Of a DNA stretch of 64,000 nucleotides, positions 2,158-3,177 are shown piece after piece; within the stretch, counting starts at the first letter, position 1, and each line of letters begins with the position of its first letter. The notes beneath the pieces were generated by a model. The model was not told the DNA's origin. It made no database searches and saw only the letters and a list, made by a program, of their open reading frames with translations. Made by a program: the position numbers and the translations under genes. The stretch is taken from the sequence record PV648359; one strand, 5' to 3'. The DNA is from Escherichia phage LF82-1.

Positions 2158-2790
2158 TCACAGTACGTTAGTTACAAGGGTAATGATTTCTTTGGACACA
2201 TTAGGGAAGTCAATGTAAGTATATTTACCACCGATCTTAATCTTAACATCATTTTCAAGAGAAGTAAACAGCTTTGATTCAGTTTCTGACATGTTGTATG
2301 CAAAGATTCTAAGAGCGCCATCTCGACGAATTTCGATCTGACGAATGCCTAGAACTCGTTTAGTGAATCGAACTTCTAAGTTACTACGGTTTTCACCAAT
2401 TTCTTTAACTTCAACTTTATCTTTAATATTTTCAAAAACAAAGTTTGCTAATTCATGCATTTCAGGAGTAACTCCACGTGCTTTTCTGGTGTTACGTTTC
2501 TGGAGAAGTTCTGGAGCATTTTCTTGAGCAAATAGGTCTGCAGCTTTTTGGATAATATCCATTGCTTCGCCGGTTGCCACAAGTCCATCACCGGATTTTT
2601 CGACTAAACCTTTTTTAATCAATACACCAATGTTAGAGTTAACAACCGATGCATTGTATTCCGCTTTCAGAGCTTCACGGACATTGGCAGCAGTGGTGAA
2701 GTTGTTCTTAATGATATAAACCATTATTGCAGCAGTTTTTTCATTCAGAGCGTTTTCAGAAGCTTTGATGATGTAAGTAACTTTAGACAT
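2158..2790 (-). CDS. motA: middle transcription activator MotA
   Basis: 210 aa; matches recalled T4 MotA (MSKVTYIIKAS.., NSNIGVLIKKGLVEKSGDGL, QENAPELL); GGAG RBS; own early promoter. Confidence 0.85.
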   Translation of the reverse strand: MSKVTYIIKASENALNEKTAAIMVYIIKNNFTTAANVREALKAEYNASVVNSNIGVLIKKGLVEKSGDGLVATGEAMDIIQKAADLFAQENAPELLQKRNTRKARGVTPEMHELANFVFENIKDKVEVKEIGENRSNLEVRFTKRVLGIRQIEIRRDGALRIFAYNMSETESKLFTSLENDVKIKIGGKYTYIDFPNVSKEIITLVTNVL

Positions 2791-2856
2791 TTTATTTCTC
2801 CAAATTAGTATTTGTTTGATAGGTCTATAATATCATGTTTGAAGCAAAAGTAAACT
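2781..2856. repeat. direct repeat copy 1 (promoter + RBS + start region), partner at 3099..3177
   Basis: About 75 bp nearly identical between the two loci (ttagacattttatttctccaa...gataggtctataatatcatgtttgaagca..gtaaac). Confidence 0.6.
2818..2856 (-). promoter_or_regulatory. T4-type early promoter (minus-strand GTTTAC -35, 17-nt spacer, TATTAT -10, conserved AGACCTATC downstream) for motA
   Basis: Plus-strand motif GATAGGTCTATAATATCAT...GTAAAC; about 30 nt upstream of motA start. Confidence 0.6.
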
Positions 2857-2892
2857 TTATTTTGGGCTCTTTTTCAAAAGCCCTGGTAAAAT

Positions 2893-3108
2893 TTACAAAC
2901 TCATTTCTTTAATAAGGCTAATAAGTTTTGCCTTTTTAGAACGAAGCTTTTCTAAATGATGTCCATTTGAACCGCGAACCACTAAAGAATTGATTTCAAC
3001 TTCTAAGAAATTTAATTCTTCAACAAGTGCTTTACGGAGAGCATTCATACCAGGTTTAACTTTACCGAAACGAGTAGTTGTGTTTTGGGTTAATTTCATT
3101 TTAGACAT
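2893..3108 (-). CDS. hypothetical protein (motA.1 position)
   Basis: 71 aa; 5' region (promoter, RBS, MSK start) is a near copy of the motA 5' region. Confidence 0.5.
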   Translation of the reverse strand: MSKMKLTQNTTTRFGKVKPGMNALRKALVEELNFLEVEINSLVVRGSNGHHLEKLRSKKAKLISLIKEMSL

Positions 3109-3177
3109 TTTATTTCTCCAATTTGGTTGTTTTGTTTTGATAGGTCTATAATATCATGTTTGAAGCACATGTAAACT
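3099..3177. repeat. direct repeat copy 2
   Basis: See partner at 2781..2856. Confidence 0.6.
3139..3177 (-). promoter_or_regulatory. T4-type early promoter for ORF 2893..3108
   Basis: Near-identical copy of the motA promoter cassette. Confidence 0.6.

Follow-up and report, generated by a model that had tools for sequence, protein, structure and literature searches.

The stretch of DNA analysed here, in the following called the window, comprises 64,000 nucleotides of Escherichia phage LF82-1 (sequence record PV648359), and this report is concerned with two similar regulatory cassettes within it, one of which precedes the transcription activator gene motA and the other its small upstream neighbour orf71. 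Judged by sequence similarity, the window belongs to the genus Mosigvirus and thus represents a relative of RB69 among the T4-like phages. The region from position 2100 to 3400 matches Escherichia phage LF82-2 at 100% identity, and JS09, PhAPEC2, ATK47, Shf125875 and other Mosigvirus phages at 97-99%. All genes of the locus are encoded on the minus strand, in the transcription order gene 52, an open reading frame (ORF) of 26 amino acids (aa), an ORF of 71 aa (orf71) and motA. With all positions being those of the window, the features of the locus are as follows.

2158-2790, minus strand: motA, activator of middle-period transcription, 210 aa, protein starting MSK (ORF listing; phrog_1345, E = 7e-90)
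2782-2864, minus strand: proximal (P) copy of the repeat, upstream of motA (repeat finder, gapped alignment, promoter scan)
2855-2850, 2832-2827, 2801-2798 and 2790-2782, minus strand: signals of the P copy, namely the -35 element GTTTAC, the -10 element TATTAT preceded by TG, the ribosome site GGAG, and ATG TCT AAA
2864-2883, minus strand: stem-loop GGGCUUUU-GAAA-AAGAGCCC between the orf71 stop and the P promoter (RNA fold)
2893-3108, minus strand: orf71, accessory gene of unknown function, 71 aa, protein starting MSKMK (phrog_6200, E = 1e-39)
3100-3185, minus strand: distal (D) copy of the repeat, upstream of orf71 (repeat finder, gapped alignment, promoter scan)
3176-3171, 3153-3148, 3119-3116 and 3108-3100, minus strand: signals of the D copy, namely the -35 element GTTTAC, the -10 element TATTAT preceded by TG, the ribosome site GGAG, and ATG TCT AAA
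3189-3221, minus strand: terminator-like hairpin GGGAGC-CGAA-GCUCCC (stem-loop at 3204-3221) followed by UUUUGUGCAUUUUUUU, just upstream of the D promoter (RNA fold, terminator scan)
3220-3300, minus strand: unannotated hydrophobic ORF of 26 aa (MSALALGFLGAIAALVIWLYWLDKHD), sharing ATGA as an overlap of its start with the stop of gene 52
3297-4622, minus strand: gene 52, medium subunit of DNA topoisomerase II, the upstream flank of the locus (phrog_551, E = 3e-217; annotation as in LF82-2)

The product of motA is labelled MotA-like in the LF82-2 record, the sequence of which is identical.

An earlier note, made from the bare sequence, had claimed that about 75 bp comprising an early promoter, a ribosome site and the first codons are nearly identical in front of motA and of the adjacent ORF, and that both proteins start with MSK. 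The paired cassettes and the common MSK start are borne out by the alignment, the anatomy and the ORFs; the near-identical stretch is, however, longer than claimed (about 85 nt) and not uniform, as it consists of two exact blocks around a diverged patch. The direct repeats at 2782-2864 and 3100-3185 have a start-to-start spacing of 318-321 bp and were returned by the repeat finder as two pairs of segments (2808-2864 with 3129-3185, and 2782-2809 with 3100-3127). In a gapped alignment of the minus-strand P and D segments 76 of 89 columns (85%) are identical, with three gap columns made up of one 1-nt and one 2-nt gap, and over the coordinates of the earlier note the count is 70 of 79. The promoter part contains an exact block of 32 nt, TGCTTCAAACATGATATTATAGACCTATCAAA, at 2815-2846 and 3136-3167 (minus strand), and the ribosome site and start contain an exact block of 22 nt, TTGGAGAAATAAAATGTCTAAA, at 2782-2803 and 3100-3121 (minus strand), and between the two, in the 5' untranslated region (UTR), about 12-15 nt have diverged, a patch which holds a 3-nt indel. 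Outside the repeat the likeness drops sharply, to 13 of 40 positions in the coding sequence past codon 3 and to 4 of 40 upstream of the A-rich flank. The finding that the earlier note had named as speaking against its proposal, an identity confined to the promoter core, thus does not hold for the window with its 22-nt ribosome-site/start block, but it does describe the relatives from the genus Dhakavirus, in which only the promoter part is repeated.

Neither exact block recurs in the 64 kb when up to three mismatches are allowed, 0 matches being expected in shuffled sequences. As a fairer null, all 167 early-promoter-like sites of the window were compared with each other (13,797 pairs), and the P/D pair ranks first among them with a local score of 56, the runner-up scoring 42.5 and the 99th percentile lying at 12. 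About 20-25 nt of the 32-nt block (TGnTATTATAGACCTATCAA) are generic early-promoter consensus common to other promoters of the phage, and what is specific to the P/D pair are the spacer, the ribosome site and the first three codons.

In the direction of transcription (minus strand, 5' to 3'), the order of elements is the same in both copies: first a hairpin and an A/T-rich flank, then GTTTAC and, after a 17-nt spacer that ends in TGA, TATTAT, followed by AGACCTATCAAA, a UTR of about 15 nt, GGAG, 7 nt, and ATG TCT AAA. Both copies are intergenic and have the early-promoter form GTTTAC-N17-TATTAT with TG at -15/-14. The upstream sequence is TTTTGTGCATTTTTTTCCTCACAAAACA in the D copy and CCCAAAATAAA in the P copy, and GGAGAAATAAAATG follows downstream in both. 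Three differences are diagnostic of the copies: the flank upstream of the -35 element (CTCACAAAACA in D as opposed to CCCAAAATAAA in P), the beginning of the spacer, where D has ATGT or ACGT as opposed to TTTT in P, and the 5' UTR, which is AAACAAATACTAATT in the P type and AAAACAAAACAACCAAA in the D type. That both cassettes would act as early promoters is well grounded in the consensus match and the literature on T4, and orf71 and motA are probably both made immediately after infection.

RNA folding assigns the D-side hairpin a free energy of -16.6 kcal/mol (z-score, z = -3.18) with a U-rich tract behind it, and the P-side hairpin -12.3 kcal/mol (z = -2.97). The former, annotated as a terminator in the records of ATK47, PhAPEC2 and KAW3E185, is a predicted intrinsic-type end of the gene 52 transcription unit; the latter is kept in Mosigvirus and Dhakavirus. 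A stem-loop inside the spacer, as in one subclass of the PeSL cassettes discussed below, was also considered and rejected: CATGT...ACATG of the D copy folds only weakly (-4.5 kcal/mol, z = -0.77) and the P copy has none (z = +0.5), although the strain variants ATGT/ACAT and ACGT/ACGT of the D spacer hint at covariation.

Altogether 29 related loci were retrieved. In RB69, a member of the same genus, orf71 is lacking and the spacer between motA and gene 52 measures 185 bp as compared to 506 bp in the window, the difference of 321 bp being exactly one repeat period. Six pairs of a two-cassette and a one-cassette genome, compared over about 2.5 kb, show no large gap other than one of 318-324 bp at the cassette site, the flanks being 93-98% identical. 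Some 149 Mosigvirus-like records match the junction region, and since 72-76 of them hold orf71, about half of the Mosigvirus records are without the gene, among them SSE1, which is classed in the species Mosigvirus JS09 even though the type phage of this species has it. An assembly artefact as the source of the indel was rejected, as each form is found repeatedly, in dozens of genomes that were sequenced independently. The earlier note had proposed that the repeat is a substrate for recombination which could delete or duplicate the intervening gene. The one-period indels, together with the chimeric junctions described below, speak for deletion, whereas no tandem duplication of orf71 was found among the 93 phage records holding it (tblastn), each of which has one copy in one place.

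The single cassettes that remain in genomes without orf71 are of several chimeric types. In class A (RB69, PTK) the D flank and D spacer are joined to the P UTR followed by motA, the junction lying in the 32-nt core. Class B is D-type through the entire UTR and enters motA at codon 4, so that the UTR of orf71 is fused to motA; it comprises FL18, GADS24, S143_2, SSE1, phi25-307, phiC120, F27, mogra, JK36, O157 typing phage 3 (O157tp3), KAW3E185 and two IMG/VR contigs. A mosaic class B' (mar007P3, moskry) has the D flank, the P-type TTTT spacer and the D-type UTR; JK36, which belongs to the same species as this pair, has the ACGT spacer. A scan of IMG/VR with the 22-mer returned seven loci, namely the two class B contigs, which are from Mosigvirus, three Marfa-like motA promoters and two unrelated sites. 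A count of the junction classes in all phage records by means of diagnostic queries of 41 nt was dropped, because the query for the fusion of the orf71 UTR to motA, with 122 records at a coverage of at least 80%, also picked up Klebsiella phages and extended partially into P copies.

The same search brought up PHB12 (MK524178), which keeps both cassettes but carries a D-type UTR in its P copy, resulting in an uninterrupted exact repeat of 68 nt (561-628 and 882-949 in the compared locus). By its sequence, this homogenised repeat appears to be a gene-conversion intermediate. Class B could accordingly have arisen either via a crossover in the 22-nt ribosome-site/start block or via a UTR conversion like that in PHB12 and a consecutive crossover anywhere in the 68 nt, and both routes need an end-point of the exchange inside the ribosome-site/start block to which the earlier note had drawn attention.

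The direction of these changes can be judged from other genera. A single motA promoter, with a D-like upstream flank and a P-like UTR, is found in T4 and in the Marfa-like phages of Klebsiella. All four Dhakavirus phages examined (JS98, VR5, Bp7 and ABTNLsp5) carry an orthologue of orf71 between gene 52 and motA and have two promoters there, the UTRs of which match the D and P types, the D-type UTR resembling that of the orf71 orthologue. The single P-like UTR of T4 and the Marfa-like phages, taken together with the D/P pairs of Dhakavirus, indicates that the two-cassette arrangement is old and that the P-type UTR is motA's own. The class B genomes, in which motA follows the UTR of orf71, are therefore derived deletions. 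Class A may have arisen by precise excision or may have retained the ancestral allele.

Substitutions common to both copies of a genome and differing between lineages point to exchange without deletion. In Mosigvirus the sequence GCTTC...TATTAT is found in both copies, in JS98, VR5 and Bp7 both have GCTTT...TACTAT, and the spacer starts with TTAT in both copies of VR5 and with TTCT in both copies of JS98; the copies of ABTNLsp5 are not homogenised. In Dhakavirus the ribosome-site/start regions of the two genes differ, being TGGAGATACAAAATGAACAAG for the orf71 orthologue (MNK) as opposed to TCGGAGATTAAAATGTCTAAA for motA (MSK), which makes the identity over 22 nt a lineage-specific trait, and the 22-nt block is probably a conversion specific to Mosigvirus. 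As motA starts with ATGTCTAAA in all genera, and orf71 starts with MSK and the motA-type block in every Mosigvirus examined, the likeliest course on the sequence data is that motA sequence was converted into the orf71 copy within Mosigvirus, by which the repeat would have been extended into the coding region.

The gene thus flanked has a narrow distribution. Relatives of orf71 were found by tblastn solely in phage records of the Mosigvirus and Dhakavirus type, a search of 5.8 billion proteins returned only eight close homologue clusters, and the product matches no Pfam family. Other genomic contexts, sought as a sign of mobility, were not found in the 12 loci examined, in all of which the gene lies between gene 52 and motA. 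Compared with the Dhakavirus orthologues, the ratio of nonsynonymous to synonymous divergence (dN/dS) is about 0.2 at a dS above 1, which indicates purifying selection between the two genera; orf71 is a real but dispensable early gene. In ECCR664 (OL631257), a 1-nt deletion near the 3' end changes the frame and results in a 68-aa product with an altered C-terminus, which may reflect decay of an accessory gene or a sequencing error.

Taken together, the anatomy of the cassettes, a natural presence/absence polymorphism of exactly one period, several types of chimeric junctions and lineage-shared substitutions in both copies make it very probable that the window carries tandem cassettes of the type known as PeSL (promoter-early stem-loop), kept alike by selection as well as by exchange, and that their homology lets the orf71 unit be excised or re-inserted. 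In each cassette the stem-loop would end or attenuate the transcription coming from upstream, and a strong sigma-70 promoter of the T4 early type would then start a new transcript, one cassette driving orf71 and the other motA. The copies would be held alike partly by selection for promoter function and partly by gene conversion between them, and their homology would allow one repeat unit with orf71 to leave or re-enter by means of the recombination and replication machinery of the phage. Excision may yield a circular product, and the exchange itself may have proceeded by homologous recombination or by replication slippage.

Several points weigh against this interpretation. The arrangement of RB69 and PTK could be the ancestral state in which nothing was ever inserted. 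D and P keep their distinct spacers (ATGT/ACGT as opposed to TTTT) and distinct UTRs in many genomes, which means that homogenisation is not rapid. The promoter core is conserved between genera in spite of the high dS of orf71, so that much of its identity could be due to purifying selection by itself. The P-side hairpin is without a U-tract and would for that reason more likely attenuate transcription or protect a 3' end than serve as a canonical terminator, and the firing of the promoters as well as termination at the hairpins are predictions from a consensus match and from folding energies. Finally, one- and two-cassette genomes are interspersed in the neighbour-joining trees built for motA and for about 940 nt at the 3' end of gene 52, which have no bootstrap support and are based on low divergence, and FL18 (one cassette) groups with JS09 (two cassettes) in both. 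Such interspersion fits recurrent events or frequent allele exchange and is supportive only, as it may reflect allele exchange between co-infecting phages and not many independent deletions.

Of the competing explanations, the one that survives best, though still rather doubtful, is that replication slippage, or copy-choice between short direct repeats, produced the deletions without involvement of UvsX, in which case the cassettes would be incidental repeats with no specialised part in shuffling. A pair of exact blocks of 22-32 nt, about 320 bp apart, is a classic substrate for slippage, and Arbiol et al. leave open whether the exchange at PeSLs is a by-product of the general T4 machinery, needing less than 50 bp of homology (PMC2839356). 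For the deletions themselves, slippage and homologous recombination are inseparable by sequence data alone. Slippage, however, poorly explains conversions without deletion such as the UTR swap of PHB12, the TTTT patch in mar007P3 and moskry, and the lineage-shared substitutions.

An alternative hypothesis, which is unlikely, assumes insertion instead of deletion: a single cassette would be ancestral, and a module of orf71 plus promoter, in the form of a PeSL mini-circle or of a donor segment, would have entered the motA promoter once. The single-cassette genomes would, on this hypothesis, either never have received the module or have lost it again by an allele swap with co-infecting phages. 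In its favour are the single promoter with a P-like UTR in T4 and the Marfa-like phages, an architecture that RB69 and PTK match exactly, and the explicit reversibility of the PeSL model. Against it stands the presence of orf71 at the same site in four of four Dhakavirus phages and in half of Mosigvirus, from which it follows that the insertion either predates the split of the genera or was passed between them as a unit. Moreover, the commonest single form fuses the D-type UTR of orf71 to motA and cannot represent a never-inserted state. An original insertion is compatible with excisable PeSL-type cassettes, and the part of the hypothesis that is rejected is the claim that there were no deletions.

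It would go further to regard the cassette pair as a reversible recombinational toggle held at an intermediate frequency (about 50:50 across Mosigvirus, the two forms being interspersed on the trees of the flanking genes), or the spacer sequence TGCTT(C/T)A as an operator for MotA, and both proposals appear distinctly improbable. If the former were true, each flip would remove or restore the early product of orf71 and move motA to the other flank and 5' UTR (D or P), so that the dosage of MotA and the content of accessory genes would be switched together; if the latter were true, motA would be under negative feedback and the duplication would have extended this control to orf71. A heptamer resembling the MotA box, TGCTTCA, is found in both spacers (2840-2846 and 3161-3167, minus strand; about -26 to -20). 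It reads TGCTTTA in Dhakavirus, is conserved in the motA promoters of the Marfa-like phages, and was found in no other spacer of the candidate early promoters listed for the window; TGCTTYA as such occurs 66 times in the window as compared to 22 expected occurrences. The heptamer could thus be a MotA feedback site or a coincidence. The MotA box, (a/t)(a/t)(a/t)TGCTTtA, sits 12 +/- 1 bp upstream of the -10 element and replaces the -35 element (PMC2988021). A MotA-dependent middle promoter was rejected on this basis: the heptamer ends 7 nt before TATTAT, a good -35 element is present, and a usable -10 element is lacking 11-13 nt downstream.

Least probable is that the likeness merely reflects what two strong T4-type early promoters must share, by convergence or constraint and with no role as a recombination substrate: many early promoters of the window do have the motif TGnTAT(A/T)ATAGACCTATCAA (at least six others on the minus strand), and conservation of the core amounts to about 95% between Mosigvirus, Dhakavirus and even the Marfa-like phages while the neighbouring coding DNA is synonymously saturated, but this account is already contradicted by the exact one-period indel and the chimeric junctions, to which the escape of an assembly artefact is unlikely across more than 70 independent genomes, and it would predict neither the lead of the P/D pair over all other promoter pairs, nor the shared non-consensus spacer GCTTCAAACA and a 22-nt block reaching into coding sequence, nor the lineage-shared substitutions and the 68-nt repeat of PHB12.

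Some further observations were made in the vicinity of the cassettes and elsewhere in the window. The loop of the gene 52 terminator (3204-3221, minus strand) reads CGAA in the window, JS09, PhAPEC2, RB69 and S143_2, and TTCG, the exact reverse complement, in ATK47, G53, Shf125875, FL18, GADS24, SSE1, PTK and others, and FL18 and JS09 differ in this loop even though they group together and their flanks are 97% identical; to judge from these sequences, this looks like a recurrent inversion of the hairpin loop. Next to it, the hydrophobic ORF of 26 aa is, by its place, the positional analogue of motA.1 of T4: this position is occupied by motA.1 (49 aa) in T4 and by a 34-aa ORF in the Salmonella phage ABTNLsp5, which likewise encode single-pass hydrophobic peptides but differ in sequence from the ORF of the window. 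Farther away, three sequence copies at about 16975-17004, 58331-58360 and 59350-59380 (minus strand) were likened to the commonest PeSL subclass, and two of the three precede members of a tandem run of ORFs of 316, 319 and 331 aa (57352-60375), which could be another recombination-prone array. A 46-nt direct repeat at 5437-5482 and 49702-49747, 87% identical and containing, in the minus-strand sense, the palindrome GAGAGCA...TGCTCTC around a TATAAT-like box, may be another pair of promoter-plus-stem-loop cassettes, 44 kb apart.

With respect to known systems, the early promoters of T4 are composed of UP element, -35, TGn and -10 (Hinton 2010, PMC2988021), and both copies in the window conform to the extended T4-type consensus with a UP-like A-tract, TGn and the initial transcribed region. 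MotA of T4 is an early product, and its mRNA is cut by RegB in the GGAG Shine-Dalgarno sequence (PMC2988021). The shared sequence GGAGAAATAAA fits five of the seven downstream positions of the RegB consensus GG*AGRAYARAA, which is suggestive and was not used as evidence. The promoter of T4 motA is orthologous and lies directly upstream of the gene, with the flank CACAAAAC(A/G)GTTTAC, the start ATGTCTAAAG and a GGAG site. In contrast to the window, however, it is present in one copy, there is no 71-aa ORF, the 49-aa motA.1 overlaps the end of gene 52, and the sequence of the spacer is different.

The variable internal-protein (IP) loci of the T-even phages are reportedly flanked by repeats, a description that goes back to Repoila et al. 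in 1994. As cited in PMC2839356 and PMC4122927, they resemble the window in having T4-type early-promoter repeats and weak A/T-rich stem-loops around exchangeable small genes, as well as a cassette-like polymorphism in relatives; they concern another locus and another class of genes.

The closest parallel is provided by the PeSLs, which comprise a stem-loop, an early promoter, a Shine-Dalgarno sequence and a start within about 100 conserved bp and flank ORFans (Arbiol 2010, PMC2839356). They mediate deletion and insertion, and excised mini-circles have been detected by experiment (PMC2839356; Comeau 2014, PMC4122927); in the PST/T4 pair, their promoters have the form TTTACW-N17-TAYWAT, with the stem-loops just upstream of the promoter (PMC4122927). 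The element of the window is likewise a composite, of about 85-120 bp, made up of a stem-loop, an A/T-rich flank, a sigma-70-type promoter, a Shine-Dalgarno sequence and a start; two copies surround a small ORF, and close relatives differ by exactly this ORF together with one cassette, the cassette that remains being chimeric. Its (G)TTTAC(A/T)-N17-TATTAT fits the PST/T4 form, and its stem-loop lies just upstream as in PST. The sequence features by which PeSLs are recognised, i.e. an early promoter, an adjoining stable stem-loop, a flanked accessory ORF with indels and flanking sequences, are thus all found at the cassettes of the window. There are differences as well: the motA/gene 52 locus of Mosigvirus and Dhakavirus is not among the pairs of PMC2839356 and PMC4122927 (RB49/phi1, PST/T4, nt-1/KVP40), one cassette serves the essential core regulator motA and not another ORFan, and the identity extends three codons into both coding sequences. 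Also, the evidence comes from about 150 records of a population, known from sequences alone, among which there are several classes of junctions and intermediates of conversion, and not from a single phage pair.

As the regulatory cassette is at the same time the site of recombination, each exchange leaves the neighbouring gene correctly expressed, which in the present case is motA, a gene needed by T4. The roughly 150 sequenced alleles, the junction classes and intermediates such as that of PHB12 make the locus suited to measuring the rates and tract lengths of short-homology exchange, and it might also be used to ask what the role of the 71-aa early protein is. The locus is a further, well-supported example of the known modular shuffling mediated by PeSLs, and the mechanism as such is not new; somewhat new are the motA promoter as one of the partners, the identity over three codons of both genes, the multiple junction classes with their intermediates, and the replacement of motA's 5' UTR by that of the gene which was lost.

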